Positions 9,667 through 52,072 of a stretch of 64,000 nucleotides of DNA are shown piece by piece. A program made the translations under genes and the position numbers. Position 1 is the first letter of the stretch. The number at the start of each line of letters is the position of its first letter. The stretch comes from Escherichia phage phita32, in sequence record PQ758395, one strand, 5' to 3'. Under the pieces are notes generated by a model. The model was given only the letters and a program-made list of their open reading frames with translations, ran no database searches and was not told the origin of the DNA.

Positions 9667-10323
9667 ATGTTTGCTATGGAAGAATGGAGAAAACTGGTTG
9701 GCAAGGAGGCCAACTATGAAGTTAGCAGCAAAGGAAGGATTAAAAGGCTGTCTTACCTGAGGAAGTACAGTAACCAAACAGGTAAAGTTACTTTCAAAGC
9801 TGTCCCTGACAGGATTTTAAAAGGTAGCGTAGACAGTAGCGGTTACATTCAAGTAAATGTGGATGGAAGATCGGAATTGCTTCACAGGTTAATTGCCGAG
9901 ACCTTTCTAGAGCCTCCTTCAAAAGAGCTTGTAGAGGAATGTAAGGCAGCAGGGCTGGACTATGTACCGATTAATCATAAAGACCATAACCGCCTAAACA
10001 ATGCTGCTGACAACCTTGAATGGGCCTCGCCTTCAAAAAATGCACAAGATGTGGACTACGATTACTGTAAAACAAGAGGTGAAAATTCATACTGTGCAAA
10101 ACTTAAAGAGCGAGATGTTGACGAAATATTAAAGCTTTCCAAAACAGGTATGTCGCAGCAAGCTATAGCAGATCTTTTCGGTGTTAATCAGATAACCATT
10201 TCCAATATCTTGACAGGAAGGAGTTGGGCATGGTACACTGGGATACCTAAAACCGCAAGGTGTAAAAACAAAAGGAAGAGATCCCCAAAAAGCATGTCCG
10301 AGCAAAATTTCTCGGTAAGCTGA
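9667..10323 (+). CDS. HNH homing endonuclease (NUMOD4 + HNH_3 + C-terminal HTH), free-standing
   Basis: EEWRKLVG..YEVSSKGRIKRL NUMOD4-like; INHKDHNRLNNAADNLEW HNH motif; C-terminal LSKTGMSQQAIADLFGVNQITISNIL helix-turn-helix. Confidence 0.8.
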   Translation: MFAMEEWRKLVGKEANYEVSSKGRIKRLSYLRKYSNQTGKVTFKAVPDRILKGSVDSSGYIQVNVDGRSELLHRLIAETFLEPPSKELVEECKAAGLDYVPINHKDHNRLNNAADNLEWASPSKNAQDVDYDYCKTRGENSYCAKLKERDVDEILKLSKTGMSQQAIADLFGVNQITISNILTGRSWAWYTGIPKTARCKNKRKRSPKSMSEQNFSVS

Positions 10324-10382
10324 TTGTCACTAATGTAAACTATCAACACATGGAAGTGTTGTTGAGCAAAGAGGAGACTTTT

Positions 10383-10667
10383 ATGGTAGTAGAACCAACA
10401 AAAACATTTACATCTATGACTATCCCTGTTATTATGCAGGTGGAGTGTGTTCAGGTATCTCAAGTGTGGCCTGGCACCAAAATCCCAACAGGGCCTGATT
10501 TCTTTCAGGTTGGGAAAGTGTACAATGTCTGGAAGGCACCAGATTGTTACCCTTTCATTAAAGATGACCGTGGAATGTTGTGGTATCTTGGAAATGATTT
10601 GACACTGCACCTTGGGAATGCTATTATTGCAGTATTCAGACTTAACAAGAAGGAGACCGATCAATGA
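10383..10667 (+). CDS. hypothetical protein
   Basis: Start moved from track 10350 to ATG 10383 with AAGAGGAG SD. Confidence 0.45.
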   Translation: MVVEPTKTFTSMTIPVIMQVECVQVSQVWPGTKIPTGPDFFQVGKVYNVWKAPDCYPFIKDDRGMLWYLGNDLTLHLGNAIIAVFRLNKKETDQ

Positions 10668-10891
10668 CAACTTTGGTTAAAGCTACTTTTGTAGAAGAAA
10701 AGATGACAGACCTGTCCTTCTTTAAAGAAGGAAAGACCTACGAGGTTTATTACGATAAAAATCGTGCAAACAAGATGATTAAAGACGAGGAAGGGATTGC
10801 CTGGTTTATCTCCCATCTGGCAAACGGTGAGTATCATATCTACGGAACCACCCTGCTTGCCAAGTTCGTAGCTGTTGAAGAGGACCTATGA
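10664..10891 (+). CDS. hypothetical protein
   Basis: ORF with AAGGAG SD, ATGA overlap. Confidence 0.45.
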   Translation: MTTLVKATFVEEKMTDLSFFKEGKTYEVYYDKNRANKMIKDEEGIAWFISHLANGEYHIYGTTLLAKFVAVEEDL

Positions 10892-11082
10892 AAGTAAAGT
10901 ATCTGGCTGAGGGTATGAGTAGGTATTTCACCCTTGGTGAAGAATATTGGCCCTTTACAAGCAACGGCGATGTATACGTGAAAGATAATTTCGGCACGCC
11001 GTGGTTTCTGCACTCTAATGGGCTGGGATACTCCATTTACTGTGGTGCAGTGAACAACACAACCCTTGCAGAGTTCGTTTAA
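10888..11082 (+). CDS. hypothetical protein
   Basis: ORF, ATGA overlap with upstream gene. Confidence 0.4.
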   Translation: MKVKYLAEGMSRYFTLGEEYWPFTSNGDVYVKDNFGTPWFLHSNGLGYSIYCGAVNNTTLAEFV

Positions 11083-11092
11083 AGGAGGTAGG

Positions 11093-11464
11093 ATGTTAGT
11101 AAAAGGTACCCACACAGTCAAACAACGTATTGAAGTTGAGATTGATGATTGTGAGCTGAAGCATATTTTACGGTCATGCTCCAACGTTTTGCTCCTTAGC
11201 ATTCTTCAGGAGCGGGCAGAGAACGAGTTCTTAAATGCACTGGCAGGCCGTCCTGGTGACTTCTGTGTGCGTAAGCGTGGTGACAACAAGTCATGGTTGT
11301 GGGAAATCGATGCCGACTGGGATTACCACAAAAATGAGGGTATAGATGAGCCTATTCGTGAATTGACAGACAAAGAGATTCAGATGTACAATGAAGTTTG
11401 TCATTGGGCAACACGCCAACAAATTTACCTCGACCCTGTGTGGCTGATTGAAAATAGCCATTGA
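11093..11464 (+). CDS. hypothetical protein
   Basis: Start moved from track 11066 (TTG) to ATG 11093 with AAGGAGG SD. Confidence 0.45.
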   Translation: MLVKGTHTVKQRIEVEIDDCELKHILRSCSNVLLLSILQERAENEFLNALAGRPGDFCVRKRGDNKSWLWEIDADWDYHKNEGIDEPIRELTDKEIQMYNEVCHWATRQQIYLDPVWLIENSH

Positions 11465-11489
11465 CAAGAAGTAAGATTAGATATAAGAT
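11461..11489 (+). promoter_or_regulatory. sigma70-like promoter (TTGACA-17-TAAGAT)
   Basis: -35 TTGACA 11461-11466, 17-bp spacer, -10 TAAGAT 11484-11489, upstream of gene 11541. Confidence 0.4.
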
Positions 11490-11540
11490 GCTTCACACAA
11501 ACAGAGCGTTGATTTTTAAATAACTAAGGAGACTGCCAAG

Positions 11541-11792
11541 ATGAAAATTACTTTGAAGCCAGAATGCGTTGCAAATGACCGAGCTTTTAAAGATTGCACA
11601 GTCGGTGCAATTTATGAAGCAGAGTTTTGTGAGAGCCCTCTGGTAAAAGCCCTTCTGGAAGAAGGCTCTTTATCACAAGAAGAGATCGATGAGCTGGAAA
11701 ACTCAGCACAGTGCCTTACCTTTAAAGATGATGAAGGAGACTCTGTCTGGTGCACTGTTAACGAAGTCGTTTTTGTAAAACCTGAACATTAA
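11541..11792 (+). CDS. hypothetical protein (tandem paralog A)
   Basis: ORF with AAGGAGA SD; shares AF(K/R)DCT and DD(E/N)GD..(W/F)CT motifs with the next gene. Confidence 0.5.
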   Translation: MKITLKPECVANDRAFKDCTVGAIYEAEFCESPLVKALLEEGSLSQEEIDELENSAQCLTFKDDEGDSVWCTVNEVVFVKPEH

Positions 11793-11795
11793 TAC

Positions 11796-11824
11796 TTGAC
11801 AACAGTGATGGGGCCTAATATAAT
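11796..11824 (+). promoter_or_regulatory. consensus sigma70 promoter (TTGACA-17-TATAAT)
   Basis: Perfect -35 TTGACA 11796-11801 and -10 TATAAT 11819-11824 with 17-bp spacer. Confidence 0.6.
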
Positions 11825-11855
11825 GGCCCTATCAAAACGAAAGGGGACCACAGCA

Positions 11856-12116
11856 ATGACCAAACAATATCAACGAATTAAAGCCAAGGTTAAGCCAGAC
11901 TATCTGGAGAAAGACTCTGCTTTTCGGGACTGCACAGCCGACAAAGTTTACACAGGGGCTGTCCTATTGAACGATAAACTTGAAGTAGATGTGCTGGGTA
12001 AAGAGGCCGTTATCGAGGATGACAACGGTGACTGTGTTTTCTGCACCACACGGGAGCTAGAAGTCTTAGAATACTTCGGTGAAATCTTCAACTCCTTAGA
12101 CGACGAGGAAGCGTGA
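11856..12116 (+). CDS. hypothetical protein (tandem paralog B)
   Basis: Start moved from track 11796 (which overlaps the promoter) to ATG 11856; paralog of 11541..11792. Confidence 0.5.
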   Translation: MTKQYQRIKAKVKPDYLEKDSAFRDCTADKVYTGAVLLNDKLEVDVLGKEAVIEDDNGDCVFCTTRELEVLEYFGEIFNSLDDEEA

Positions 12117-12505
12117 TGAAAAATATTTGGGATATTGATATCTTTGAAGCCTCTAAGCTTGACGGTGCTGATGGAGTGATTATGGTGTCTGATGGCAAGG
12201 CAACACTAACTTCCGGAGATATCATCTATGCCTTGGACGAGCTGGCGCTTCTGAAATCTATCGGTAACACTTTGGAGGAGCGTCTTCAAGGCTTCGCTTT
12301 CAAAGAAGGTACAAATACCGCCATGATGTGCACCACACGGACAGTCCAGGTAGGTAACGGTGTCTATATGATCATTGCTGTGTGTCCTAAATTCAGCAAC
12401 GTCAACAAAGATGATACTGACGCTGTCAACGATGTGGTTGTTCTCTTCGTGGGTGACGCTATGGCAGATCTGATGAATGCAGGAGAAGCAGCAAATGAAG
12501 ACTGA
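12113..12505 (+). CDS. hypothetical protein
   Basis: ORF with GAGGAAG SD. Confidence 0.45.
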   Translation: MMKNIWDIDIFEASKLDGADGVIMVSDGKATLTSGDIIYALDELALLKSIGNTLEERLQGFAFKEGTNTAMMCTTRTVQVGNGVYMIIAVCPKFSNVNKDDTDAVNDVVVLFVGDAMADLMNAGEAANED

Positions 12506-12797
12506 AAACATCACCCCCGCAAGGTTCTTAAAAGTATACCGTGAACTGCTATATACTACAGAGGACAGTGTTCTAGAGTATCCAGAATATCTTTTGCTGT
12601 ATAAGTATCTGCAGGAGGCTGGTGAAAATCTGCCAGTTAGTGCAGAAGGTGGTCCGAACTGGATATACAGCGCATGGAGAAAGGTTGACATTCTCCCCGA
12701 CCCAGGTAAAGATATGGTAGTTTGGCAGCTTATCAACAACATCGGGATTCCAATCTTTGATGAAGCTGTTAAAATCTATTTTGAACTTGACGATTAA
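12495..12797 (+). CDS. hypothetical protein
   Basis: Start moved from 12477 to ATG 12495 (AGGAGA SD at 12481). Confidence 0.4.
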   Translation: MKTENITPARFLKVYRELLYTTEDSVLEYPEYLLLYKYLQEAGENLPVSAEGGPNWIYSAWRKVDILPDPGKDMVVWQLINNIGIPIFDEAVKIYFELDD

Positions 12798-12814
12798 TAT
12801 CAGGAGACCTTAAG

Positions 12815-13060
12815 ATGACTGAAGTAGTTGCTCGCGCAGGACAGAAAGTACGTTGTGTTGAAGTAGGTTTTGGTGGCAAAGGGTGTCAAAACTTGACTCA
12901 AGGTAAGGAATACGCTGTTATTTCTGGTGGTGGCGACGAAAGTATTGTGTTCGAGGGCCACATCCTGGATGCTGAAAACTTTGAAATCTTTGACGACGAT
13001 GGGGATCCGATCACCTGCCTGCTGGACGGGAATTGGGGAACTTTTGAAGTGATTGGCTAA
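12815..13060 (+). CDS. hypothetical protein
   Basis: ORF with AGGAGA SD. Confidence 0.45.
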   Translation: MTEVVARAGQKVRCVEVGFGGKGCQNLTQGKEYAVISGGGDESIVFEGHILDAENFEIFDDDGDPITCLLDGNWGTFEVIG

Positions 13061-13143
13061 CAAATATCTATTGTAATTTGCAGAAGGGGATGCTAAAATA
13101 GTGTCTCCTTCTATGTTGTTCAAATAAAATCGGAGATTCCATA

Positions 13144-13509
13144 ATGGAACAAATGAACGATCAAGCGTCGGTTGCGATGAACGAGCAAGAACAACCTCAA
13201 GAATTTTTCTTAGGGTTAAGTAAAGATCAAGTGTCTCTTTTGCTAGTGCTTTCTTCTTTCATGGGAAGACTTCAAGAGCTCACACAACAACCGGAGGCTG
13301 AACAATTATTTCAGGCTCTGCGTGAAGAAGAAAAATATCGTCGTTTGGACTATGCCTTAGGTTGGGTAGCTCAACAACGGGATATGCTGATGGCCCTCTC
13401 TGGGACCACAAGTTTTGCAATGGGCCTGTTGGCTCAAGTTCAGGACAAATTAATTCAAGCAGGGTTCGCACACACGGCAAGCACTAACGAAGAACAAGGA
13501 GACAAATAA
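13144..13509 (+). CDS. hypothetical protein
   Basis: ORF with SD; Gln/Glu-rich. Confidence 0.45.
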   Translation: MEQMNDQASVAMNEQEQPQEFFLGLSKDQVSLLLVLSSFMGRLQELTQQPEAEQLFQALREEEKYRRLDYALGWVAQQRDMLMALSGTTSFAMGLLAQVQDKLIQAGFAHTASTNEEQGDK

Positions 13510-14780
13510 TGAGCGTTATTCAACAATTCGCTAACCCAATGAATCCGCGTGAAACTGTTTTACTGGCTCACGGCATGATTAAACGTGTTAGCATCAAGCC
13601 TATCAAAGGTGCTGATCCTACAACAGGTATTAAAACCACTGTGTGGCAAGGTAAGAAAATTGAATCCAGCCACACCATCTCTTTACTGATTTCTGAACTG
13701 GATTCCTCTGATAACCTGCTTCAAGGTGGTGAAGAAGTCTGGATCAGCATGGGTGATAAGCTGCTTAAACCAGGTCATCAAGACTCTGTCTCTGTTAAGA
13801 TTGATGACAAGTGGGAAACCGTAACGCCAGGATGGATCGTAAATATCCCTTTGAAGGCAAACGAGCATAACGGTAAGACCTATTACAAGGGCTCACTGGC
13901 TAAGATGGTTAAGCTGGGTGCAGGAGAGGCTCCAGCAGCGACTCAGCAGCAAAAACAGCAACAAGGTGCACAATCACAAGGCCAGAAGCAGAAACCTCAG
14001 CAGAATGCCAATCAGGACGTTTTACGCATCTATGGTGATGTGACTCAGATTGTTGGCAACGTGGTTACTGTTAATGACCACAAGATTGGCGAAGGTGCTA
14101 TGGTTGTCACTGATGAGCAGCTTAAAGATCTGGTGGTAGGTGGTCGTGTTGCAGCCATTGTTGACAAAGACACCGGAAACATTATCAGTGGTTTCAAAGC
14201 CTATCCTCCTAAGGCAGAGAACGGCACTCAAGGCTCCGGTGGCAAGCGTAAATCCTCTTACGACCCTATCGGTGTGGAAACGGGGCATAGCATCAATGCG
14301 TTGCAGATCATCCTGGATCGCGGGTTTAAGGTAGACGACCCACTGGGCGTGGCTAAAACACTGCACGTAGTCACCATTGAGCTTAAGAAAGAGTATGCTC
14401 AAGCCACCAACCGAACTGAAGATGAAGTAGGTGCCAGTGTCGGTAATGCGGTGTTGAACGCTTGTCGCCGTATTGACAAGAAAACGAAAGTTGATGATTT
14501 TGCAGCGGCAATTACTGCAGAAGCAAAAGATGTCTTGACTAATCTGGCTGAGCCGTTGTACGATTGGATCAAGAACGGTGCTGGGTCAACTGACCATCAA
14601 GAACCTCAGGCTGCCAAACAGGAAGCAGCTCCACAGCAAAACACTGTAGACGCTCCTCCTGTAAATGATGAGGAAGATGACCCAATGGATCAGAATCCGG
14701 CGCAGTATGACTTCTGTGATGACATACCTTTCGCTCCGGTAGGTTTGCAATATGGCAAAAGTAGAATCCACGCATTGTAA
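13509..14780 (+). CDS. hypothetical protein with Gln-rich linker and SSB-like acidic DDIPF tip (possible ssDNA-binding/replication accessory protein)
   Basis: [20 protein letters not shown] low-complexity linker; acidic [22 protein letters not shown] near C-terminus resembling the E. coli SSB tip; ORF reads 18 aa past DDIPF into the next gene. Confidence 0.4.
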
Positions 14781-15375
14781 GAGGTGCATCAAGTGCGGGG
14801 AGGTGAAAGACCTCTCCGAGTTCTACAAACACCAAAAGATGTCTGACGGTCATCTTAATAAGTGCAAAGAGTGTTGCAAGAAGGCCAGTAGGGAGGCTGA
14901 CCAATTTTCCTACGACTCTTCAGAAAAAGGTGTAATACGCGTGCTGTACAAGGCTCAAAAGTGCAACAGCAAGCAAAGAGGTCACCCGCCTCCGACTTAC
15001 ACCAAAAAAGAGTTTAAGGAGTGGCTATACCTAAACGGTTACAAAGAGTTGTATGATCAATGGGTAGCCAGCGGATACGACAAAAGGAAAAAGCCTTCTT
15101 GTGACAGGATAGATGATTTCAAAGGGTACTCTTTTGATAATATCCGTTTAACGACTTGGGGAGAAAATAAAGACAAGCAGACAGAGGATATTCTGTTGCA
15201 TAGAAGCACCAGCGGTAGACGGTGTAAAAATGTAAGGAGGCTGGACATGAATGGCAACGTTCTTAAAGAATGGGTATCCCACAATTCTTGTAGAAGAGAA
15301 ACCGGAATATGTGTTGATTACTACATTCATGAAAAAATTCCAGCCCCGGATGGATACCTCTATGAATACTTTTAG
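14752..15375 (+). CDS. putative zinc-finger / HNH-like homing endonuclease
   Basis: N-terminal [26 protein letters not shown] zinc-finger pattern common in phage homing endonucleases; [22 protein letters not shown] resembles a degenerate HNH_3 motif. Confidence 0.4.
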
Positions 15376-15390
15376 CACCTAACTAACATA

Positions 15391-15419
15391 GCCCTGCCCG
15401 AAAGGGTGGGGCATTTTTG
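15391..15419 (+). terminator. rho-independent terminator (duplicate of 3666 element)
   Basis: Identical GCCCTGCCCGAAAGGGTGGGGC hairpin followed by ATTTTTGT. Confidence 0.7.
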
Positions 15420-15437
15420 TATAAGGAGATCTGAAAA

Positions 15438-15653
15438 ATGACATTAGAAGATATCATTGTTAAACCTGAGAACTATGACCAATACAACCTGTCAACTCAA
15501 TCTGTAGGCCTCGGATGCGCCACAGTCAGTGCATGGCTGGTTAACGGAAAAGAGCTTGACGAGTGCCTGGAAGCACACATGTCGGTGAATAAATTTCTTG
15601 ATGAAAATACCCACTGGCTGGAGGGTGCAGGAGTATATGCTTCATGGTTGTAG
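15438..15653 (+). CDS. hypothetical protein
   Basis: ORF with AAGGAGA SD. Confidence 0.4.
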   Translation: MTLEDIIVKPENYDQYNLSTQSVGLGCATVSAWLVNGKELDECLEAHMSVNKFLDENTHWLEGAGVYASWL

Positions 15654-15656
15654 AGT

Positions 15657-27069: not shown

Positions 27070-27151
27070 AATAGTTTGACAACAGTCAACAATCTGGTAA
27101 AGTGTACTACATAGCGCGGGAATACTTCCCGCCATTAATGAGGGTAATTTA

Positions 27152-27298
27152 ATGAAAACTTTCAACGCAACGGCCTCGACAATTGGTTATATTATTACAG
27201 TACAAGCCGTGGATCTGGTAGCAGCAGCAAACAAGATTAAAAAGATGATTCCGCCAGGCAGTGAATTTTCCGTTTGGGAAGTAAAAAATAAATCTTGA
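27152..27298 (+). CDS. hypothetical small protein (48 aa, not in ORF track)
   Basis: ATG 27152 downstream of GCGCGGGAATACTTCCCGCC leader hairpin and GAGGGTAA SD. Confidence 0.35.
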   Translation: MKTFNATASTIGYIITVQAVDLVAAANKIKKMIPPGSEFSVWEVKNKS

Positions 27299-27322
27299 CG
27301 ATAATTTGTTATCTGATAGAAT
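27295..27322 (+). promoter_or_regulatory. sigma70-like promoter (TTGACG-16-TAGAAT) with leader hairpin
   Basis: GGGCG..CGCCC hairpin 27335-27358. Confidence 0.5.
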
Positions 27323-27382
27323 GTATTTCGTAGGGCGGGGAAATAAGGCAACGCCCCACATCAACCGGAAGAGGAAAACAAG

Positions 27383-27619
27383 ATGAGTATTGCGACAATA
27401 TTAACCGCTGTTAAAACCGCTGAACGTTCCGGCCTGCAAGTTGAGATTATAGATCAACCAGGTGGCGATCTCCTTGTCCAAGTTTACCCGCCGAAAGTAG
27501 GGGATGATTATTATTGGTGTTATTCTGATACGTTCGAACAAGTAGACACGAAAGCAATAACCGCCTTTATTTTAAAAGCCGTTGAAGAAAATAACTTGCA
27601 CAATAACGTCAATCAATAA
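27383..27619 (+). CDS. hypothetical protein
   Basis: ORF with AAGAGGAAAA SD. Confidence 0.5.
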   Translation: MSIATILTAVKTAERSGLQVEIIDQPGGDLLVQVYPPKVGDDYYWCYSDTFEQVDTKAITAFILKAVEENNLHNNVNQ

Positions 27620-27673
27620 ACCATAAGCGAAGTGGTAACGCCCCATTAAACGCAATAGAAAGAGGATAACTAC

Positions 27674-28522: not shown

Positions 28523-28718
28523 GTGCGATAATGACCACTGATGAAGCTGTAAAAGTGTTGGCGGTATTGAGATAACATAATCAGACAAAAGTTATAAACG
28601 ATCCTGATTATGTTGACTCAAAGCGTGAAGATGAGACATTGACCGCAATAGGGATTATTCAAGAATTGCTAAAGCGCATGACAGAGAAAAACCGACCTGA
28701 CTACATAGGGGGTAAAAT

Positions 28719-29030
28719 ATGATCGCTATTACGCCAACCGTTTTAGATTGGTATCGGCAACGCATAGCGCTTCCGCTGGCTATCTTCAAAGATGCGGAAG
28801 CAAAACAACGCCGGATCTCAATACATGAGATCATCAACCTTAACGCTGGAGGCACACCATACCGTCCAGGACCTGGCCGTGAGATGGACAATACGTTAGC
28901 GATCCTGAAGATACGCCGTAAACGGTCCTCCCTTACGCTGGACTCATTACACACAATGCAGTCTCCGTTCCAGGTGACCGGGAAACGGATCGCCAGGTCC
29001 TGGACAAAGGCCAATGATCGGACCGTATAA
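28719..29030 (+). CDS. hypothetical protein (uncertain; lies in GC-rich repeat-containing segment)
   Basis: ORF with AGGGGGTAAAAT SD on the array strand; region carries CCAGGACCTGG / CCAGGTCCTGG inverted motifs and could be non-coding. Confidence 0.3.
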   Translation: MIAITPTVLDWYRQRIALPLAIFKDAEAKQRRISIHEIINLNAGGTPYRPGPGREMDNTLAILKIRRKRSSLTLDSLHTMQSPFQVTGKRIARSWTKANDRTV

Positions 29031-29117
29031 ATAAAAAGTGTTTTGGTACTGATTTTGGGGTTGACTTGTTCGGCCCCTTTTGCTATTCTTATTAAACGGG
29101 CGGCACTTGGGAACAGG

Positions 29118-29140
29118 GGGAGACAATCACCGGGCCTGCC
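29118..29140 (-). repeat. GC-rich 23-bp element (inverted right copy)
   Basis: Plus strand GGGAGACAATCACCGGGCCTGCC is the reverse complement of 19553-19575. Confidence 0.45.
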
Positions 29141-29165
29141 TGTCATATAAGAACTATAAAAACCT

Positions 29166-29194
29166 TTGACATCTGCCATGGGGTGAGGTAACAT
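29166..29194 (+). promoter_or_regulatory. sigma70-like promoter (TTGACA-17-TAACAT) with leader hairpin
   Basis: GGGGGCAAAAGTGCCC hairpin downstream. Confidence 0.5.
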
Positions 29195-38513: not shown

Positions 38514-38831
38514 TCATTCTCCAAAGTCAATCTTTACTTTGCCTTTCCCCTTACCTTTCTTTCCACCGCATTTAGCCAGCTGACGTGCTGCAACATCTAC
38601 CATACGGTCAGTTGCCTCGTAAGCATCACTACCTTTAGCCTTGGCAATAACTTCTTTTCCAGAATTGTCAAAAATGAGCGCCATAACTCCCTGGTGATCA
38701 TTTTCAACTTTTACACTCACACGTGCATAGTTGGCAGAGGGGTGCAAACGCTCCAGCTTAGACATTTTGTGGGAAATGAAAGACACCATACCTTCAGTGA
38801 TTTCTACGTTGCCAGTGATTTCAATTTGCAT
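38514..38831 (-). CDS. ribosome hibernation promoting factor / RaiA (YfiA) family protein
   Basis: MQIEITGNVEITEGM..KLERL..VSVKVEN..AKGSDAYEATDRMVDVAARQLAK aligns along its length with E. coli HPF/RaiA (MQLNITGNNVEITEAL..KLEQY..VVLKVEK..AEGQDMYAAIDGLIDKLARQLTK). Confidence 0.75.
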   Translation of the reverse strand: MQIEITGNVEITEGMVSFISHKMSKLERLHPSANYARVSVKVENDHQGVMALIFDNSGKEVIAKAKGSDAYEATDRMVDVAARQLAKCGGKKGKGKGKVKIDFGE

Positions 38832-45288: not shown

Positions 45289-45339
45289 GCAAATCTCCAG
45301 ATCATAAAAGCCCTCCGAAGAGGGCTTTAGAATTAATGT

Positions 45340-46389
45340 TTAAGCTTCTTCGACAATTCCTGCGCCCAGGATTTTTTCATTGAGCTCTTTTGCTGTTTTA
45401 ATAATATTGTCCACCAGACGCTTACGGGTCTTATCTTTCACCTGAACTTCTTCGCCGCCGTTCAGGGTGGTTTTCAATTGGGACAAAATGTCCTGAAGCT
45501 CTACCACAGAGAATCGCTGCAGATCTTCCGAGGTAATCTCACCCAGTGCAATCTTAACGGTCTCACCACTCTCCATCTGCAGATTCAGGAACACAGTGTG
45601 AACATCACCTTTCGAACCACCCGCTTTTGCAGATTCAACAGCATGAACTAACTCATCTAAAGATGTGCACTGGTGAATCTCCGGAAGACCTGCTTCACCT
45701 AACACGCCTTCTTCATCACCTTTTGCCAGAAGCTTTTTCGGTTTTTGTCCGTTCTGGATGCGTTGTATGTTGCCTTCATCCAGAATAATAGCTCCAGTGC
45801 GTGCTGCCAGCTCTTCTCCGTCCAACCACACTTCGCCACCAGCTGTGATGGATGCGATCTCATCTTCTGTCAGCACCCCACCGTAGTATTTTTCGATCAG
45901 GCGTTCAAAACGTTTTTTCCAGTAGCTGACCTGAGTATTCATGTTCACACCGTTACCATAAGTGCCACCTTGATAGTAGTGGAACATAAATTCTGTGTCC
46001 GGAGCCACAGTACGTTCTTTACAACCAAGCCATAAGATTGTTCCAGCAGAGCAGCACATCCCTTCAGCATGTGCAACAACGCTTGCCTGAGACTCGCGGA
46101 ATGCCTGCAGATAAGCCATTGCAATGTGCACGCAACCCCCAGGGCTATTGATGATCACCCGAATGCTTTCTTCCGGCTGAGCCATACGGATCGTCTGCAG
46201 ACGAGACATATGATCTTGTAAGTCTTCCAAATCGTCGATATAAAGAACGTGGTCAACAACAGGTGTTGGGTAGCTGTATGTTTCCATAATACCACCCGGC
46301 ATACCAAACATTTTATTACTCATAGGTTCGAAACCGTTCTGTTTTTCTTTCATGCCGTGTACTATGGTGCTGCGAGGTGTTAAATTCAT
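45340..46389 (-). CDS. ClpP-like (S14 fold) serine protease domain protein with C-terminal extension
   Basis: RVIINSPGGCVHIAMAY and AHAEGMCCSAGTIL resemble ClpP INSPGG and catalytic Ser region; about 150-aa charged C-terminal extension. Confidence 0.6.
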   Translation of the reverse strand: MNLTPRSTIVHGMKEKQNGFEPMSNKMFGMPGGIMETYSYPTPVVDHVLYIDDLEDLQDHMSRLQTIRMAQPEESIRVIINSPGGCVHIAMAYLQAFRESQASVVAHAEGMCCSAGTILWLGCKERTVAPDTEFMFHYYQGGTYGNGVNMNTQVSYWKKRFERLIEKYYGGVLTEDEIASITAGGEVWLDGEELAARTGAIILDEGNIQRIQNGQKPKKLLAKGDEEGVLGEAGLPEIHQCTSLDELVHAVESAKAGGSKGDVHTVFLNLQMESGETVKIALGEITSEDLQRFSVVELQDILSQLKTTLNGGEEVQVKDKTRKRLVDNIIKTAKELNEKILGAGIVEEA

Positions 46390-46449
46390 GAGAAATCCTT
46401 AATATTGGAAGTTGAAAGCTATTTATTTAAACCTGATTCACATTTACCT

Positions 46450-46761
46450 TTATTTAGCAATCACTAAGGAATACTTACGATTGTCAGAAGCATCACAGCT
46501 CAATGATTGCCAGTCTACCACATACCACGTATCATTGTCAACAATTACTTTATCGCCTGTTCTGTAGCAGGTGCTGCTTTCAATAATCCGAGACTCGATA
46601 AAGAATCTGTGTCGGCACTCACGTAGCAACGCTAAGTTGATTATATTACCACCACTGTCCTTGATCCACACATTCTTGTATCCTTTATTTGCCAAAATTG
46701 TCTCGCCTTTATAGACAAACAGGCAGTATATTTTATTCAGTCTCTCTTGTATTGTAGCCAT
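46450..46761 (-). CDS. hypothetical protein
   Basis: ORF with AGGAGA SD downstream of its own promoter. Confidence 0.45.
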   Translation of the reverse strand: MATIQERLNKIYCLFVYKGETILANKGYKNVWIKDSGGNIINLALLRECRHRFFIESRIIESSTCYRTGDKVIVDNDTWYVVDWQSLSCDASDNRKYSLVIAK

Positions 46762-46791
46762 ACTATCTCCTTCTACTTGTCTTGTCCGATA

Positions 46792-46820
46792 ATAATATCT
46801 AAAGCTTACCTGTTTGTCAA
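46792..46820 (-). promoter_or_regulatory. sigma70-like promoter, minus strand (TTGACA-17-TATTAT)
   Basis: Minus-strand -35 is the complement of 46815-46820, -10 of 46792-46797. Confidence 0.55.
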
Positions 46821-46864
46821 CAACTGTTTTAGATATTTAAGGGTGGAATAACCACCCTTCTGTA

Positions 46865-47653
46865 TTACTCGGAAACAGGGGTCCAAATATGATTTGCACG
46901 ATCCTCTATAAGATTGAGAGCAATCTGACGACCCAACCCGGAACGAACGACATCGTCTGGACTATCAAAGCTGATCATTCCAACCTCGGGATCTGGATGA
47001 CGAGTAAAGAAATCCGTCACCCATGCAAGGCCAGATTTACCAGGGATGTCACGTTGACTATTATCGCCCATAATTACAAGGGTGGCCTGATCAGAGATCC
47101 TTGTAATAATTGACAACATTTCTTCAGGGTTAGTTTGCTGTGCCTCGTCAATCAGGACAAAGCATCGCTCATCGAAACTACGACCACGAATGCTTTCAAC
47201 TTCACAAATCTCGATACGGCTGTTCTGACCATCTCCCAGCATTGCGGCAAAAGCACCTTTGCCAACACGACGACAAATCGTGTCCATCATGCTTCGAAGA
47301 TAGGGCCACAGTTTTTGCATTGCATTCCCTGGTTTAAATCCTGAAGTCTTTCCTGTCTGAACGTAAGGACGTGCAACAATGATCTTATCAATCTCGTTCT
47401 TACGCAGAAGATCACCTGCATATGCAGATGCCATGAATGTCTTACCGGATCCAAACACACCGTTTACAATAATAATCTTACGTGACCCTAGATAATCAAG
47501 ATACTTTTGCTGCTTCTTATTCATTGGTCGGAGAGCTGGAGCAGTGTGCTCTCTTTCGTCAGCAAATTTCTCAGCAGCCTTACGCAGGCGATCAGATTTG
47601 CGAGCCTCTCTAGCTTCATCACGCATGCGTTTTGTTTCTTTAGCTCGACCCAT
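46865..47653 (-). CDS. phoH: PhoH-like ATPase
   Basis: Walker A GVFGSGKTF, Walker B FVLIDEAQ and overall PhoH-family pattern. Confidence 0.8.
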   Translation of the reverse strand: MGRAKETKRMRDEAREARKSDRLRKAAEKFADEREHTAPALRPMNKKQQKYLDYLGSRKIIIVNGVFGSGKTFMASAYAGDLLRKNEIDKIIVARPYVQTGKTSGFKPGNAMQKLWPYLRSMMDTICRRVGKGAFAAMLGDGQNSRIEICEVESIRGRSFDERCFVLIDEAQQTNPEEMLSIITRISDQATLVIMGDNSQRDIPGKSGLAWVTDFFTRHPDPEVGMISFDSPDDVVRSGLGRQIALNLIEDRANHIWTPVSE

Positions 47654-47691
47654 GTTGGGACTCCTTTCAGATTGAGATGTGCCAAGTACTT

Positions 47692-48042
47692 TTACTGCAA
47701 CAGTTTTTCAATAGCCGCTTCCATGCTGCTTGCAACAGCCTGAACTCGGATATTCATCTCTTCTTGGTGGATCAGCTCCTTAAGCTCTTTAACGGTAAAT
47801 TCTTTAGAGAAACCTTCCACCATGATCTTGTGCAAGGCTTCTTGCGTGTCCACTTGCAAGAACTTTTCCAGTTTGTTGGCAGAGGCTTCTAAATCAGCCC
47901 GAATACGAGGGTCATCTGTGCGATTCAGCATTAGGCGTAAGCCATCAAGATTAGTAGAAATAGCGTCTGCATGTTGAGTAACTAACCGTGGCAAAATGAG
48001 ATCTACAAACTTATTAGCCAAATCGATACGTTCTTGTGTCAC
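47692..48042 (-). CDS. hypothetical protein
   Basis: ORF (GTG start). Confidence 0.45.
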   Translation of the reverse strand: MTQERIDLANKFVDLILPRLVTQHADAISTNLDGLRLMLNRTDDPRIRADLEASANKLEKFLQVDTQEALHKIMVEGFSKEFTVKELKELIHQEEMNIRVQAVASSMEAAIEKLLQ

Positions 48043-48152
48043 TGTTGCACCCCCTCTTCATCCTCATGATATTTCTTTTCACGCTTGTGTTTTTTCTTAA
48101 GCTCAAGCGCAATCTCTTTTTTGTACGCCTTCTTCAAGGCTTTTTTAGCCAT
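48039..48152 (-). CDS. small basic protein (37 aa, not in ORF track)
   Basis: ATG 48152 with AGGAGG SD; MAKKALKKAYKKEIALELKKKHKREKKYHEDEEGVQQ. Confidence 0.3.
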   Translation of the reverse strand: MAKKALKKAYKKEIALELKKKHKREKKYHEDEEGVQQ

Positions 48153-48214
48153 TTGGCACCTCCTCTGCTCTCATTACGCTAATTATAACCAACTTAACAA
48201 AGCTTTGTCAACGA

Positions 48215-48688
48215 TTAGTCAACCTGAACCCAACCATCTGCTACCTTTTTAAACATTCTTTGGTTATCACTACCTCTGAATGGTTTTTTGGTGGGGTTAT
48301 CTTTTTCGTACTTACCATCCATAATGTAATCGACACTATCTTTAATGTAATCTGGGACTTCTTCAAACAAATACCCTGTGTACACCCAGATAGTTTTTGT
48401 GTTGCCGAAGCGTTCACGGATAGCGAGAATGATCGAGTACATACCATCGATATTGTAAGGCGCTAAAGGTTCGCCACCACACAATGTAACTCCGGTAATA
48501 TGTTTCGGCTCTATAGAGTGGAGTATACTCTCAATTGTGTCATTTGTTAACGGTTCCCCTTTAGCGGGTGACCAAACACTTTTGTTTTGGCAACCAACGC
48601 AGTGATGTGGACAACCAGAACAGAACACCGTTGTCCTAATGCCTGGGCCGTCAACCATGCTACACTCTAGAATATTAACAACATTCAT
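48215..48688 (-). CDS. nrdG: anaerobic ribonucleotide reductase activating protein (radical SAM)
   Basis: N-terminal CPHHCVGC (CxxxCxxC) radical-SAM cluster motif, NrdG size, adjacent to nrdD. Confidence 0.8.
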   Translation of the reverse strand: MNVVNILECSMVDGPGIRTTVFCSGCPHHCVGCQNKSVWSPAKGEPLTNDTIESILHSIEPKHITGVTLCGGEPLAPYNIDGMYSIILAIRERFGNTKTIWVYTGYLFEEVPDYIKDSVDYIMDGKYEKDNPTKKPFRGSDNQRMFKKVADGWVQVD

Positions 48689-48921
48689 TCCTTATCCTCT
48701 TTGAGGTAGGGAGATTCAGGCCCACAATAAGCCCTATCTAAGAAAACAGCTTCTTCCCCTCTGGAATCAGTAGATTTATAATACCCATCACCCTGGTAAC
48801 TAACGAACCAGTAGCACCCATCATCGCTTTCTACTGTTGTGGCTCTGTCCGAATGAAAGATAATTTCATAATCCTTATCGAATGTAAACCATCTGTTGGC
48901 TTTTATGCAGGCACCTATCAT
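48685..48921 (-). CDS. hypothetical protein
   Basis: ORF, overlapping stop/start with nrdG. Confidence 0.4.
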   Translation of the reverse strand: MIGACIKANRWFTFDKDYEIIFHSDRATTVESDDGCYWFVSYQGDGYYKSTDSRGEEAVFLDRAYCGPESPYLKEDKE

Positions 48922-49072
48922 AAGGGACCTCTCTTCTGTGGTGTGCTTCTATTCAAGATAGACCTATAAAAGTCCATTTGATGAATCCGTATACCTTTCT
49001 ATACTTACACTTCAGTGCTAACAATTTTATCTTGATTTTCTTGATAAATTTCTGCATTTCAACCCCTTATGC

Positions 49073-49189
49073 TTATAAGTACTCCGCATCGCATTCAGGG
49101 CAATGCCAAATAAAATCATCAAGTGCCTTGCACCAACGAAGATTGCAACGACAACCACACTTGCAAATTTTATAAATACCTTTAGACAT
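49073..49189 (-). CDS. small Cys-rich zinc-ribbon peptide (38 aa, not in ORF track)
   Basis: ATG 49189 with AGGAGG SD; MSKGIYKICKCGCRCNLRWCKALDDFIWHCPECDAEYL. Confidence 0.3.
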   Translation of the reverse strand: MSKGIYKICKCGCRCNLRWCKALDDFIWHCPECDAEYL

Positions 49190-49250
49190 ACTGTACCTCC
49201 TAGTTCACTGTGCCAACAATATGCCACATCCTTGTGGCTTTTGTCAAGTA

Positions 49251-50222
49251 TCAGCAACCACAACTTCCGTAGTGCTTAACCCGTTCTATAACTTCCGCTT
49301 GCTTACCCTTATTGTAAGGACGGGAGTTAGGACTGGAAAGGTATCCAGACACACGTCGAATTACGCTGATCGTTCCCTCTTCATGGTTTCCACACTCTGG
49401 GCATACAAAGCCTTTAGCTGTTGCACTGAACTCACCAGAGAAACCACACTTGAGACATTTATCCACAGGCTGGTTGATACCAAAATACATAATGTGTTTA
49501 TATCCGAAATCAACAAGAGCTTCCAAAGCATCTAAGTTGTTTTTCAGATTTGGTGTCTCTACGTATCCGATGTTGCCACCAGAGGAGATCATAGCAAAAC
49601 CTTCCTCATACTCCCACTTATCAAAAGGAGAGCTATTGATCCATACTGGCTGATGGAAACTGTTGGTGAGATATTCATGCTCGTGCTTCAACACTTCAGG
49701 ATATTCACGATCCAGACAGGTTGCAGCTTTATAGCATAGACTCTCAGAAGGGGTGCCGTACAAGCTAAACGCTAGTCTACTTTCCTTCTTGTATCGCTCA
49801 CAAGCATCTCTCATGTGCTGAAGTATTCCAAGAGCTAAAGCCTTGTCACCCTCCCTGCCCAAAATCTGACAGGTTTCATACACACCAATATACCCAATAC
49901 TGATGGAAGCGTACCCGTCATAGAAGAGTTTATCAATACTCTCTTCAGGATCCAGGCGAGCAAGAGCGCCTTCACACCACATGATAGGGTTCTGCCCTGC
50001 CTTTGTTCCTTTTAGACGGTTAACCCTTACAAGGTGAGCCTCGTATGCAAGATCCAGGTATTCGTCAAGAACTGCAAAGAAATCAACACCTTCCGTTTTA
50101 GCTTTTGCCGCAATCATTGGCAGGTTAAGGCTAACAACGCCTAAGTTAAATCTGCCAAGGTATTTCTCCTCGCCTGTTACAGGGTCGCTATATTTCGATA
50201 AGAAACTTCTACACATTATGTT
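49251..50222 (-). CDS. nrdD: anaerobic ribonucleoside-triphosphate reductase NrdD, exon 3
   Basis: CRSFL..NLGVVSLNLP .. glycyl-radical RVSGYL and C-terminal Cys cluster, colinear with E. coli NrdD residues about 390-712. Confidence 0.8.
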   Translation of the reverse strand, partial: NIMCRSFLSKYSDPVTGEEKYLGRFNLGVVSLNLPMIAAKAKTEGVDFFAVLDEYLDLAYEAHLVRVNRLKGTKAGQNPIMWCEGALARLDPEESIDKLFYDGYASISIGYIGVYETCQILGREGDKALALGILQHMRDACERYKKESRLAFSLYGTPSESLCYKAATCLDREYPEVLKHEHEYLTNSFHQPVWINSSPFDKWEYEEGFAMISSGGNIGYVETPNLKNNLDALEALVDFGYKHIMYFGINQPVDKCLKCGFSGEFSATAKGFVCPECGNHEEGTISVIRRVSGYLSSPNSRPYNKGKQAEVIERVKHYGSCGC

Positions 50223-50993
50223 CAGGGTGGTTCGCAAGTCCACCCCCGCACCTTTACGTGCTGCTGCATGTTCCCATGCAGATCAGACTATATCTTCACA
50301 CTTAGTGTGTCTACCATTTCGAGTGTCATCGGCTTACACCCTACACCGCTACATTCATCACGGTTAGTCGTTAGGCATTTCGTAACAGAACTCGTAATCA
50401 TAGTTATTAGGCGCACCACGTTTCAGGATAGCAGATATTCTTTTTCTATCTACTCCTAAAACATCAGCACAACATCTCAGACTTTTAAAGTGGAAAACCT
50501 CACCAGTTAATTTGTTGGTGGCTTTCACACCGTGGCATCTTGTGTAAAAAGCATAACAGTTGTTGTTGTATCCTTCTTGCGTATTGTCTGGGCAAGCTCC
50601 CCACTCAAGGTTGTATACACTGTTATCTTTCCTGTTGTCCCCTTTGTGCTTAACATAGGGTAAATTGTCTGGATTTGGTAAGAACGCTTCAGCAACAAGT
50701 CTGTGAACCCTTAGGCAAACAGTCTTTTTGTTCTTGCGTATCCTAACAAGACGGTAACCTGTGTTTATCTCTTCCCACGAATGAATAATTCTTTCATTTT
50801 CGTAGCGGGTGCAATAAACATTGCCCATCTCGTCAATTTCATAACCTTCAAAATCACGAATTTGTTTTCTCATTTCAGGACTCCTCTTGGTCAGGAGTTC
50901 TGTTACGTTTAGCACGGGATTGTCCGTTCTGGAGTTTCCCCGTTTAGATAGATTTTACATGAGCAGTTATAGTTTACCCATGCTCGTTACTTT
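50223..50993 (-). mobile_element. group I intron 2 in nrdD carrying an HNH homing endonuclease gene
   Basis: NrdD frame breaks after KVTGSTDG and resumes at NIMCRSF with no start codon; upstream exon ends in U, intron ends in G (complement of 50223); junction uncertain by about 3 nt. Confidence 0.55.
50364..50915 (-). CDS. HNH homing endonuclease (intron-encoded)
   Basis: HNH_3 motif VKHKGDNRKDNSVYNLEW; C-terminal HTH SLRCCADVLGVDRKRISAIL. Confidence 0.8.
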   Translation of the reverse strand: MLNVTELLTKRSPEMRKQIRDFEGYEIDEMGNVYCTRYENERIIHSWEEINTGYRLVRIRKNKKTVCLRVHRLVAEAFLPNPDNLPYVKHKGDNRKDNSVYNLEWGACPDNTQEGYNNNCYAFYTRCHGVKATNKLTGEVFHFKSLRCCADVLGVDRKRISAILKRGAPNNYDYEFCYEMPND

Positions 50994-51275
50994 ACCATCT
51001 GTCGAGCCTGTCACTTTACGATTTAGTGGAACAGAAACAAAGTCAGGATAAATCCGCTCTGCAGAGCATTCCAGAGCTAATCGTTTCAAATCATAGTTAG
51101 GATCTCCAGGGTTCATGTTGACACCCTCTTCTAGGAAGAACAGCACTTTAGGGAACACAGGTGTGATACGTTCTTCACCAAGACCCATTTTGTGGACTTT
51201 CAAGTAATTTTTGGTAATCATTCTACCAAAGACCGAGGTATCCAGTCCTAAACTTAATGTGATGAATGGAGTCTG
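50994..51275 (-). CDS. nrdD: anaerobic ribonucleotide reductase NrdD, exon 2
   Basis: QTPFITLSLGLDTS..ITPVFPKVLFF..GDPNYDLKRLALECS colinear with E. coli NrdD residues about 296-390; no start codon. Confidence 0.7.
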
Positions 51276-52072
51276 CTGTCTCCTCCCTGTGTTTCCACAG
51301 GGCCAGACTATCTCTTACTCTACTTCAATAAGATAATAACCCTTTATTGTGAGATGCTTACCTTCGGCATTTCCTTCGATAGCCCTGTGAACGTTACCTA
51401 CGTTCAAATTTAAGGCTTTTGCACAGGCGTAGAGTGAAGGATATTCACCCACCAAGATTTTCCCTTTGTATGCCTGCACTTTCCTATAGCACTTACCTGG
51501 ACAAAGTCCTGTTCGGAAAGCATGTCTCTTATTATCTTCCGGCAAAACCCACTCTAGGTTAGACGGATGATCATTCAATGTATTGCCATCTTTATGATTC
51601 ACTTCCCAATTTTCAGGGTCTTCTGGGACATCTGGCAAACAATACAAGGCAACAACCCTTGAGGTTTGGATTCGAATCTTTTTACCTTTGTGGTTGAAAG
51701 AGTACATATAACGGCGTTTAACATGCTTATTACCTTTTCCATAACCTCCCCACAATATTGGGTGTAGCATTCCACGTTTTCCGTATACGTTTCCAACTTC
51801 ATCAATCACATAGTTTGATTCTTCACCATTAAGAATGATCTTTTTCATAGAGCCTCTCCATTTCGAAGTTAGTATTTCAACTAACCCCTACACTACTTGG
51901 TTCAGAAATGTTTGTCAAGCATCTCTGCCTTTCGTTAGTCGTTACAACCGTTCCAACTCCTGTAAGAACTAGTCACGGGATTGGCATAGCTTTCGCCTTA
52001 GCGTTCCCCGTTAGCCGGATTTACCGACCCCTCTTATGAGGTTAGGAGAGTTTTACAACGGCCAGTTTGTTA
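51276..52072 (-). mobile_element. group I intron 1 in nrdD carrying an HNH homing endonuclease gene
   Basis: Exon 1 ends ..AACGGU; intron starts UAAACAAACUGGCCGUUG, whose GCCGUU can pair with the exon end including the U-G wobble (P1); intron ends in G (complement of 51276); exon 2 resumes QTPF. Confidence 0.65.
51315..51848 (-). CDS. HNH homing endonuclease (intron-encoded)
   Basis: HNH_3 motif VNHKDGNTLNDHPSNLEW; C-terminal HTH; in same frame as exon 2, separated by a stop. Confidence 0.8.
   Translation of the reverse strand: MKKIILNGEESNYVIDEVGNVYGKRGMLHPILWGGYGKGNKHVKRRYMYSFNHKGKKIRIQTSRVVALYCLPDVPEDPENWEVNHKDGNTLNDHPSNLEWVLPEDNKRHAFRTGLCPGKCYRKVQAYKGKILVGEYPSLYACAKALNLNVGNVHRAIEGNAEGKHLTIKGYYLIEVE

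Follow-up and report, generated by a model that had tools for sequence, protein, structure and literature searches.

Introduction

Are the endonuclease genes that sit in and beside the replication and nucleotide-metabolism genes of Escherichia phage phita32 selfish elements that spread by homing, or are they kept for what they do for the phage? We addressed this question in a 64,000-nucleotide (nt) stretch of its genome (sequence record PQ758395; the whole stretch is hereafter "the window"), for which an original prediction, made from the letters alone, had reported a high density of homing-endonuclease genes. Our answer is, with good confidence, the conventional one: the window carries four homing genes of two nuclease types together with three group I introns, all of them selfish elements of a kind that is ordinary in large lytic phages. 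The observations behind this reading are presence/absence polymorphism, exact empty sites, obedience to splice-site rules, co-conversion tracts, transfer between subfamilies and decayed copies.

Homing endonucleases and introns in these phages are already known biology. GenBank records of relatives (BASEL phages, isim, FFH2, FV3) annotate homing endonucleases and give nrdD and the DNA polymerase gene (pol) as joined exons, and large phage genomes are, in the words of the BASEL paper, "infested with homing endonucleases" (PMC8594841); the rV5 paper mentions introns in the terminase gene only (PMC3606486). The only points that we did not find described are a PacI-type active site in a homing gene and a cassette-linked tail on an SSB-like protein. 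The window derives from an rV5-like E. coli myovirus of the genus Vequintavirus, 95–98% identical over most of its length to isim, WalterGehring, 241Ecol014PP and rV5, and alleles were compared in a phage collection holding ~115–120 Vequintavirus records among 50,697 records overall.

Results

Nuclease genes and their polymorphism

All five open reading frames (ORFs) named in the prediction lie where it had placed them, and all match nuclease families:

9667–10323, plus strand: HNH ORF at the pol end; Pfam NUMOD4 (35.5 bits), HNH_3 (28.4 bits, cut-off 24.8) and helix-turn-helix (HTH); PHROG 59, E = 2e-38
51315–51848, minus strand: HNH ORF in nrdD intron 1; Pfam HNH_3 (29.5 bits); PHROG 59, E = 4e-26
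50364–50915, minus strand: HNH ORF in nrdD intron 2; HNH_3 (19.8 bits, below the cut-off); PHROG 59 "HNH endonuclease", E = 1.9e-33
14752–15375, plus strand: zinc-finger nuclease ORF; no Pfam match; PHROG 1035, E = 7e-41
62495–63100, minus strand: Endonuclease VII (Endo VII)-type ORF; Pfam Endonuclease_7 (31.7 bits, cut-off 23.6); PHROG 423 and 29095; PDB 1E7D (T4 gp49), E = 1e-4

The claim of "at least four clear HNH_3 genes" holds for three HNH_3/PHROG 59 proteins, one of which (50364–50915) scores below the Pfam cut-off. The remaining one, at 14752–15375, is PacI-like and not HNH_3; its label of "zinc-finger/HNH-like" was a fair one for a protein that joins a conserved zinc finger to a beta-beta-alpha-Me nuclease. 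All three HNH_3 proteins retain the His...Asn...Asn motif, aligned as (I/V)(N/K)HK(D/G)...NLEW...(D/K)N, and these I-HmuI-like proteins carry C-terminal DNA-binding modules of the NUMOD/HTH kind, with HTH_23/HTH_3 in the pol-end protein and I-HmuI_NUMOD-like matches (E = 5e-4 and 1.7e-3, below the Pfam cut-off) among the set. The enzyme of intron 1 matches I-HmuI itself (PDB 1U3E) over residues 8–160 (E = 1.8e-4). Since they share just 22–34% identity with one another, and with other Vequintavirus HNH genes, the three HNH_3 genes are old paralogues and not recent duplicates. A scan of 55 further window ORFs of at least 100 amino acids (aa) found no GIY-YIG, LAGLIDADG, NUMOD or other nuclease family, so that the count stands at four candidate homing genes and one resolvase.

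These four genes do not form a single feature across the span of 9667–51848 given in the prediction, and lie instead at three separate loci. Their placement in or beside polymerase and nrdD was correctly called: two lie within nrdD introns and one is inserted 9 nt before the pol stop, while the fourth, the zinc-finger ORF, overlaps the last 29 nt of the SSB-like gene that it had been said to abut. The three group I introns that interrupt nrdD and pol had gone unrecognised. As for the "high density," there are indeed four homing genes in 64 kb (2,367 nt, 3.7% of the window), a figure lower than that for T4, with 15 homing endonuclease genes and ~11% of coding potential (PMC2988022), or for Certrevirus CB7, with 23 such genes and ~7% of the genome (PMC7344957).

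The prediction had named a lack of presence/absence polymorphism in relatives as grounds for its refutation, and this was not what we saw: all four genes are polymorphic among relatives. The pol-end HNH gene has one other carrier (241Ecol014PP, 97.3% identity) in the 50,697 records searched; the HNH-bearing nrdD intron 2 is full length in 17 Vequintavirus records (97–99.9%) and in 11 Stephanstirmvirinae (Phapecoctavirus-type) records (~85%); the HNH-bearing nrdD intron 1 is full length in 27 records; and the zinc-finger nuclease is present in 51 of 115 records, most of the others matching its flanks only, collapsed to 261 bp. Endonuclease-free alleles mapped in relatives gave a precise empty site for every one of the four, and the HNH_3 genes behave as homing elements do, each occurring sporadically at a single exact site that is vacant in close relatives.

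Under homing, each enzyme would, in a mixed infection, nick or cut the element-free allele of a co-infecting relative; repair by recombination would then transfer the element to the cut genome along with some of its flanks, from a few nucleotides to a few dozen; and copies reaching fixation would decay and then be lost. The general mechanism and its co-conversion are well described (PMC2988022), and HNH enzymes of the I-HmuI type are nickases (PMC3428280). From such knowledge of the families (PMC3428280, PMC2988022, PMC7344957) we infer the nuclease activity of the window proteins, their target sites, whether they nick or make double-strand cuts, and splicing in vivo. The co-conversion tracts and decayed copies described below fit this life cycle.

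Such cleavage could also profit the carrier, and the nucleases might be kept mainly for the benefit of the phage, either as weapons against co-infecting phages (interference, marker exclusion) or as enzymes domesticated for replication or packaging. An intron-encoded endonuclease is reported to mediate competition between co-infecting jumbo phages (PMC11620839), and marker exclusion by T4 homing enzymes is established (PMC2988022); in the window all four ORFs are intact with their catalytic residues conserved, and near-identical copies (99.6–99.9%) of nrdD intron 2 with its HNH gene occur in several phages. Most sequenced relatives nevertheless lack each element and are viable isolates, and decayed copies exist (in phage ECGD1 and in the metagenomic locus L019). 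We therefore hold phage benefit as the main reason for retention to be a possibility worth keeping in mind, if a doubtful one, and one that does not exclude homing, because the same cleavage gives both effects.

The nrdD locus

Set against the uninterrupted 707-aa nrdD of rV5, the nrdD of the window consists of three exons and two introns:

52073–52933, minus strand: nrdD exon 1, 861 nt, 287 codons (ATP-cone and NRDD N-terminus, from Pfam); colinear with rV5 nrdD nt 1–861
51276–52072, minus strand: nrdD intron 1, 797 nt, with HNH ORF 51848–51315 (177 aa, I-HmuI-like); an exact in-frame interruption relative to rV5
50976–51275, minus strand: nrdD exon 2, 300 nt, 100 codons; NRDD profile 180–263; rV5 nt 862–1161
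50214–50975, minus strand: nrdD intron 2, 762 nt, with HNH ORF 50915–50364 (183 aa) in a peripheral loop; absent from rV5; RF00028
49251–50213, minus strand: nrdD exon 3, 963 nt, 320 codons and stop, glycyl-radical domain; Pfam NRDD 263–562 and Gly_radical; its first 35 nt are a dense substitution tract

The Pfam NRDD profile is correspondingly split in three pieces (1–154, 180–263 and 263–562). Both nrdD introns have U/G splice sites and run into an in-frame stop no more than three codons past the 5' splice site (intron 1 begins with an in-frame TAA), and in all three introns of the window (that of pol and the two of nrdD) the U/G rule is obeyed and the conserved frame is restored relative to the intron-less alleles of rV5 or MaxBurger. 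Removal of the two HNH-bearing introns by splicing would give back an NrdD of 707 aa.

Intron 2 scores 35.3 bits against RF00028 with its ORF, and its ORF-less homologue in ECGD1 scores 70.4 bits. Its core (intron nt 12–71 and 585–715) shares ~80% identity with the core of the nrdD (sunY) intron in the T4-like phage HY03, an intron with a score of 70.9 bits. The HNH ORF sits in a 5'-proximal peripheral loop, which the Rfam alignment would assign to P6. Intron 1 reaches 28.8 bits (E = 1.6e-4), and its ORF-less form in AlexBoehm 29.8 bits, against a gathering threshold of 50; P1, P3–P6, P7 and P9 elements are recognisable in it, and it is likely a group I intron, if a less secure one than the other two.

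That intron 1 falls under the Rfam threshold both with and without its ORF would also suit an arrangement in which one or both nrdD inserts do not splice and the separate polypeptides assemble, as for the nrdA of Aeromonas phage Aeh1 that is split by mobE. A non-splicing HNH insert has been reported in CB7, where the Aeh1 precedent is cited (PMC7344957), and many GenBank relatives annotate nrdD as two genes. Yet both inserts obey the U/G rule and restore the frame exactly, the 100 codons of exon 2 lack a start codon at their 5' end (the first in-frame ATG lies 18 codons in), and intron 2 has a core that is clearly that of a group I ribozyme by its ORF-less score and its likeness to the T4-like core, as intron 1 is recognisable by its paired elements. 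Non-splicing inserts are thus the least probable of the alternatives that we weighed, and we treat nrdD as a spliced gene.

The alleles of relatives place each intron at one exact site. An ORF-less variant of intron 1 (~260–310 nt) occurs in ~60 records and has in common with the window just 139 nt at the 5' end and 40 nt at the 3' end; genomes of the rV5 type have no intron there. Intron 2 is ORF-less in Justusliebigvirus ECGD1 and similar phages and absent, with a zero-nt gap, from rV5, WalterGehring, AlexBoehm and CM1. Partial matches to intron 2 at 95–99% identity were considered as extra Vequintavirus alleles and rejected, being 43–130-nt group I core matches in FelixO1-like and T4-like phages; none lay within the examined segments of WalterGehring, rV5, AlexBoehm or CM1.

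The flanks of the introns bear the tracts that co-conversion leaves. The spliced nrdD differs from that of rV5 (2,124 nt) at 42 positions, 16 of which fall in nt 1164–1196, that is, within the 35 nt directly 3' of the intron 2 site; three further mismatches flank the intron 1 site. Where all four intron-2-minus alleles examined read TGC(C/A)GGAGTTTTCTTAGC..., the window reads TGTAGAAGTTTCTTATCG..., and the first 16 nt of this tract are common to the intron-carrying alleles of the other subfamily. Between the subfamilies, the intron 2 cassette is ~84–85% identical, compared with 74–76% for the adjacent 200 nt of exon, as lateral transfer with co-conversion predicts (mechanism in PMC2988022). 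Decay is visible as well: all that the ORF-less intron 2 of ECGD1 keeps of the HNH ORF is its final codons. Intron 2 is a clear natural case of one intron lineage crossing two phage subfamilies with a short exon tract.

Downstream of nrdD, WalterGehring has a further 330-aa endonuclease gene just past the nrdD stop, at a site that is empty in the window (49201–49222). This "putative homing endonuclease" was considered as a mis-annotated nrdD exon 3, the window exon 3 ORF being also 993 nt; by BLAST the sequences differ, and it is a separate gene downstream of the nrdD stop.

The polymerase locus

The third intron and the rarest of the four homing genes both belong to pol:

6602–9025, plus strand: DNA polymerase (family A) exon 1, 808 codons, ending TAT TAC CAT (Y-Y-H); Pfam DNA_pol_A; colinear with the intron-less MaxBurger pol to 9025
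9026–9301, plus strand: ORF-less group I intron, 276 nt; RF00028; borders from the intron-less MaxBurger allele
9302–9655, plus strand: DNA polymerase exon 2, 117 codons and stop; the last 9 codons are a recoded copy from the HNH cassette
9667–10323, plus strand: free-standing NUMOD4, HNH_3 and HTH gene, 218 aa; cassette ~9652–10320

The intron matches RF00028 at 63.1 bits (gathering threshold 50; E = 1.2e-13) over 9016–9251, directly past an 809-codon pol ORF, with a minimum free energy z-score of −2.46. U ends the 5' exon and G ends the intron, and the spliced product of 925 aa is colinear with that of MaxBurger. The insertion splits motif C of the family A polymerase (His-Asp-Glu) between Y-Y-H and D-E-Y. 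Present in 58 of 115 Vequintavirus records, with about half lacking it, the intron takes two forms, one ORF-less and 276 nt long (rV5 and the window) and the other 842 nt long with an HNH ORF (WalterGehring, FFH2 and isim). We considered whether the former is a recent deletion derivative of the latter; however, their shared parts are ~84% identical where the exons are ~96% identical, which makes the two forms separate lineages.

At the 3' end of pol, the empty alleles of WalterGehring and MaxBurger read ...GGT GAT TGT CAC TAA TGTAAAC..., and the pol 3' end of MaxBurger contains GGTGATTGTCACTAATG. The cassette of the window lies 9 nt ahead of the original pol stop. The old pol end (TTGTCACTAA) is still there at its 3' junction, and the cassette supplies a recoded end, such that the polymerase terminates in GANWGSCH where the empty-site alleles give GRNWGDCH. 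Because the cassette brings this recoded end, the carrier's own target site would be destroyed, and the recoding suggests that the target of the pol-end enzyme would be the pol terminus rather than the intron insertion site. The nearest relatives of the protein (48–52% identity) are found in Klebsiella, Salmonella, Raoultella and Cronobacter phages of the same subfamily, and the homologous gene of Klebsiella phage K54_rec3 overlaps the last pol exon at its end, a placement like that of the free-standing CB7_54 in phage CB7 (PMC7344957); the lineage appears specific for the polymerase 3' end, since its homologues occupy that position in other genera.

The ORF-less pol intron lies 350 nt upstream of the pol-end HNH gene, and 241Ecol014PP has the same ORF-less intron. 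By analogy, this geometry of an ORF-less intron with a free-standing HNH gene nearby resembles trans or collaborative homing and may be a case of it, although in K54_rec3 the homologous HNH gene follows a pol whose introns bear HNH genes of their own. Two sites at this locus that are empty in the window are occupied in WalterGehring, by a 244-aa HNH gene between primase/helicase and pol (window 6601–6605) and by a 168-aa HNH gene within the pol intron (window 9090–9160).

The zinc-finger nuclease and the SSB-like gene

The fourth homing gene differs in nuclease type and alters the end of the gene that it adjoins:

13509–14780, plus strand: SSB-like gene, 423 aa, with an OB-like N-terminal domain, a Q-rich linker, an acidic tail with DDIPF ending at residue 408 and then a 15-aa tail (14733–14777)
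14752–15375, plus strand: free-standing nuclease gene, 207 aa, with an N-terminal CxxC...CxxC zinc finger, a PacI-like beta-beta-alpha-Me nuclease and a C-terminal NUMOD-like domain

Pfam, and a Foldseek search of the nuclease model against PDB, gave nothing useful. By sequence similarity, PDB offers PacI only, and weakly (E = 0.16), over the motif DRSD..GYS..N....N. The protein nonetheless has the beta-beta-alpha-Me arrangement, with an active-site pattern (PS-DR-D...GY...N...N) that departs from the "...H.D......N.L...N" of HNH_3: there is no catalytic His, its place being taken by Arg119 and a loop Tyr (Tyr126), together with Asp/Asn metal ligands (D118-R119...Y126...N130...N139). PacI likewise has a loop Tyr where the catalytic His would be, and it binds its metal through Asp and Asn (PMC5714182, PMC4081073). 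Of the two Cys4 sets that flank the active site in PacI, we found one invariant set (C12, C15, C38, C41), N-terminal to the nuclease domain, and identified no second set in the phage protein; some of its homologues bear C-terminal I-HmuI_NUMOD-like or NUMOD1 domains. From these motifs and from the distribution of the gene, we conclude that the product is probably a zinc-finger PacI-type beta-beta-alpha-Me nuclease with a NUMOD-like DNA-binding tail, encoded by a gene that behaves as a free-standing homing gene.

The missing canonical HNH histidine raises the question whether some of the four genes are inactive fossils, intact-looking and persisting by linkage only, much as the intron enzyme I-TevIII of T4 is defunct and mobilised in trans (PMC2790892, PMC2988022). 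Among 36 homologues (33–91% identity), however, C12, C15, C38, C41, P115, S116, R119, Y126 and N139 do not vary and D118 and N130 hardly do, and for this reason the His-less site is a conserved variant and not decay. Its residues also agree with those of the site in active PacI (PMC4081073), H...N...N is kept in all three HNH_3 proteins, and the window ORFs are full length whereas real decay products, in ECGD1 and L019, are visibly truncated. Fossil genes in the window are accordingly unlikely, and we return to the reading of all four as homing genes.

The zinc-finger gene and the SSB tail form one 640-nt cassette (~14733–15372) at the stop of the SSB-like gene. Metagenomic L019, whose SSB-like protein is 83% identical, holds a decayed copy (3255–3380) between the stop codon of the tail and the terminator, reduced to ~17 nt from the 5' end and ~40 nt from the 3' end. 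L019 would thus be a snapshot of homing-gene loss with the tail left in place.

The SSB-like protein itself belongs to PHROG 4477, which has no assigned function, and had no match in Pfam or, by phmmer, in PDB. Its predicted structure has a disordered Q-rich linker, a second beta domain, a helical domain and a disordered acidic C-terminus. A D-[DE]-x-[IVL]-P-F tip is found in 35 of 35 homologues, with P407 and F408 invariant, and this, with the model, makes the "SSB-tip" label reasonable at the level of fold only. In the window the tip is present but is not the extreme C-terminus, 15 residues following it.

The empty alleles end at the tip: that of AlexBoehm, whose 3' end contains GACATACCGTTTTAACAATTAG, finishes ...DDIPF-TAA, followed by the terminator. 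Cassettes of the WalterGehring type supply a stop of their own (DDSIPF-TGA). Those of the rV5 and window type have no stop at the tip and add 15 residues, the endonuclease ORF starting at an ATG within the tail codons. Homologues of 36–45% identity carry the consensus [AS]P[VI]GLQY[GA]xxx[IV][HY]xL after the tip (one related tail reads AYAGLQYATHAIHCLY). Elsewhere the tail stands alongside an intact endonuclease gene (L016 and L017) or the decayed one (L019). In the tail-bearing genes L013 and L015 there is no endonuclease downstream and the terminator directly follows the stop, and their tail codons differ from those of the window mostly synonymously in the SSB-like frame. We considered that the 15-aa tail might be an accidental read-through of the cassette; the tails without a downstream endonuclease (L013, L015) and the mostly synonymous codon differences led us to reject this. 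The two-form C-terminus is also seen at L006 and L007.

In the sampled Vequintavirus genomes, tail and endonuclease are gained or lost together as the 640-nt unit. We offer only tentatively the idea that the zinc-finger cassette may switch the SSB-like protein between two functional C-terminal isoforms, one ended at the tip and one with the tip capped. On this view, selection would keep the tail as a module for interaction or regulation, which co-conversion spreads; another possibility is that the tail is a payload making the selfish element tolerable or advantageous. The existence of two C-terminal forms is of interest for the question whether an SSB tip has to stand at the very end of the protein.

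The Endonuclease VII-type gene

The gene at 62495–63100 had been counted among the homing endonucleases, and here the outcome was otherwise. Every one of the 120 matching records has a full-length copy with 95% identity or more. There is no presence/absence polymorphism, and this conservation excludes the gene from the homing count. Relatives annotate the homologue as a packaging and recombination endonuclease. Judged by its family and its conservation, the gene is a core one for a T4 gp49-like junction resolvase or packaging nuclease, and not a homing gene.

Other features of the window

The window consists of two divergent gene blocks, on the plus strand to ~33.9 kb and on the minus strand thereafter, and the switch in guanine-cytosine (GC) skew coincides with the boundary. 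With annotation transferred from WalterGehring and rV5, the plus block comprises rIIB, a helicase, a Dcm methylase, primase/helicase, DNA polymerase and many small early genes, and the minus block a ClpP-like protease, PhoH, nrdG, nrdD, glutaredoxin, nrdB, nrdA, ThyX, a methylase, a DnaQ-like exonuclease and Endo VII. The early region is only 88–90% identical to WalterGehring, and 27119–27660 and 28724–29078, in the early small-gene region, have no counterpart there; conversely, the N6-adenine methyltransferase gene of WalterGehring has no counterpart in the window at ~2470. An antisense ORF of 179 aa at 28655–29194 (minus strand) is without Pfam or PHROG match and for that reason is probably not a gene. 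At 38514–38831 (minus strand), Pfam Ribosomal_S30AE matches with E = 2.7e-12, and relatives annotate the homologue as a ribosome hibernation factor. One of the 55 scanned ORFs has a Macro domain match (E = 1.7e-5), unrelated to the homing finding, and a transfer RNA search of the window gave nothing useful.

Approximately 16–20 unannotated GenBank records of the MG0656xx series, titled "Campylobacter phage" with C. jejuni as host, are 95–99.9% identical to rV5-like coliphages across the window. These records look mislabelled or derived from contaminating coliphages.

Discussion

Conventional homing explains the loci examined here, and four observations weigh against it. The database is redundant and unevenly sampled, which limits what the allele frequencies mean; the HNH_3 score of the intron 2 ORF is under the Pfam cut-off; intron 1 does not reach the Rfam gathering threshold; and nt 17–35 of the intron 2 tract match neither allele type examined. 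Set beside them are the exact empty sites at all four genes, the splice-site rules obeyed by all three introns, the tracts at the junctions and the truncated copies in relatives.

Several consequences follow for the annotation and comparison of these genomes. For annotators, nrdD is one three-exon gene and pol one two-exon gene. The loci are gene-conversion hotspots and distort phylogenies. The exact pairs of empty and occupied alleles provide candidate recognition sequences for four uncharacterised enzymes, one of which has a rare His-less PacI-type site.

Comparison with known systems

Like T4, SPO1, Twort and Certrevirus CB7, the phage of the window is peppered with homing genes and group I introns in its replication and nucleotide-metabolism genes. 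With I-HmuI, I-HmuII, I-BasI, I-TwoI and I-PfoP3I, the window enzymes share an N-terminal HNH_3 domain with a NUMOD/HTH module and residence in group I introns of such genes. They differ in being only 20–30% identical to that group and in having nrdD, not pol or nrdE, as host gene, and one of the three HNH_3 genes is not intron-borne but stands free at the pol stop; nicking, strand and target would apply here by analogy only.

The nrdD (sunY) intron of T4, which carries I-TevII, shares its host gene with intron 2 of the window, and the intron 2 core is, as said, close to that of a T4-like phage. However, the T4-type site is at approximately codon 275 in the numbering of the window whereas intron 2 lies at codon 387, ~110 codons downstream, and the GIY-YIG-type I-TevII gene lies 3' of the core in T4 whereas the HNH gene lies in the 5'-proximal loop in the window. 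From these alignments, the same ribozyme lineage appears to occupy the same host gene at a different site and with a different endonuclease.

CB7, a Pectobacterium phage (Certrevirus, Vequintavirinae), also has HNH-carrying group I introns in pol and ribonucleotide reductase genes, the splicing of which was shown by reverse transcription PCR, and a free-standing gene, CB7_54, at the pol end (PMC7344957). Its reductase introns are in nrdA and nrdB, not in nrdD, and its 23 homing genes compare with four in the 64-kb window. The pol intron at motif C corresponds to the "site 881" introns of the T7-like phages PhiI and W31 (PMC3428280), an equivalence by motif and not by alignment; the W31 intron encodes I-TslI, whereas that of the window is ORF-less.

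PacI (His-Me finger group 20; PDB 3LDY/3M7K) is a 142-aa bacterial type II restriction enzyme, to which the phage protein adds an N-terminal zinc finger and a NUMOD-like domain. The match is moderate, the phage protein would belong with group 20 by its motif, and it behaves genetically as a free-standing homing element. The free-standing genes have a parallel in the seg and mob genes of T4 and in the known cases of trans or collaborative homing (mobE/I-TevIII and cyanophage psbA; PMC2790892, PMC2988022): there, as in the window, promoter-less cassettes occupy the gaps between conserved genes or the ends of such genes, and their flanks are co-converted, and the ORF-less window intron close to a free-standing HNH gene repeats the arrangement of the trans-homing cases.

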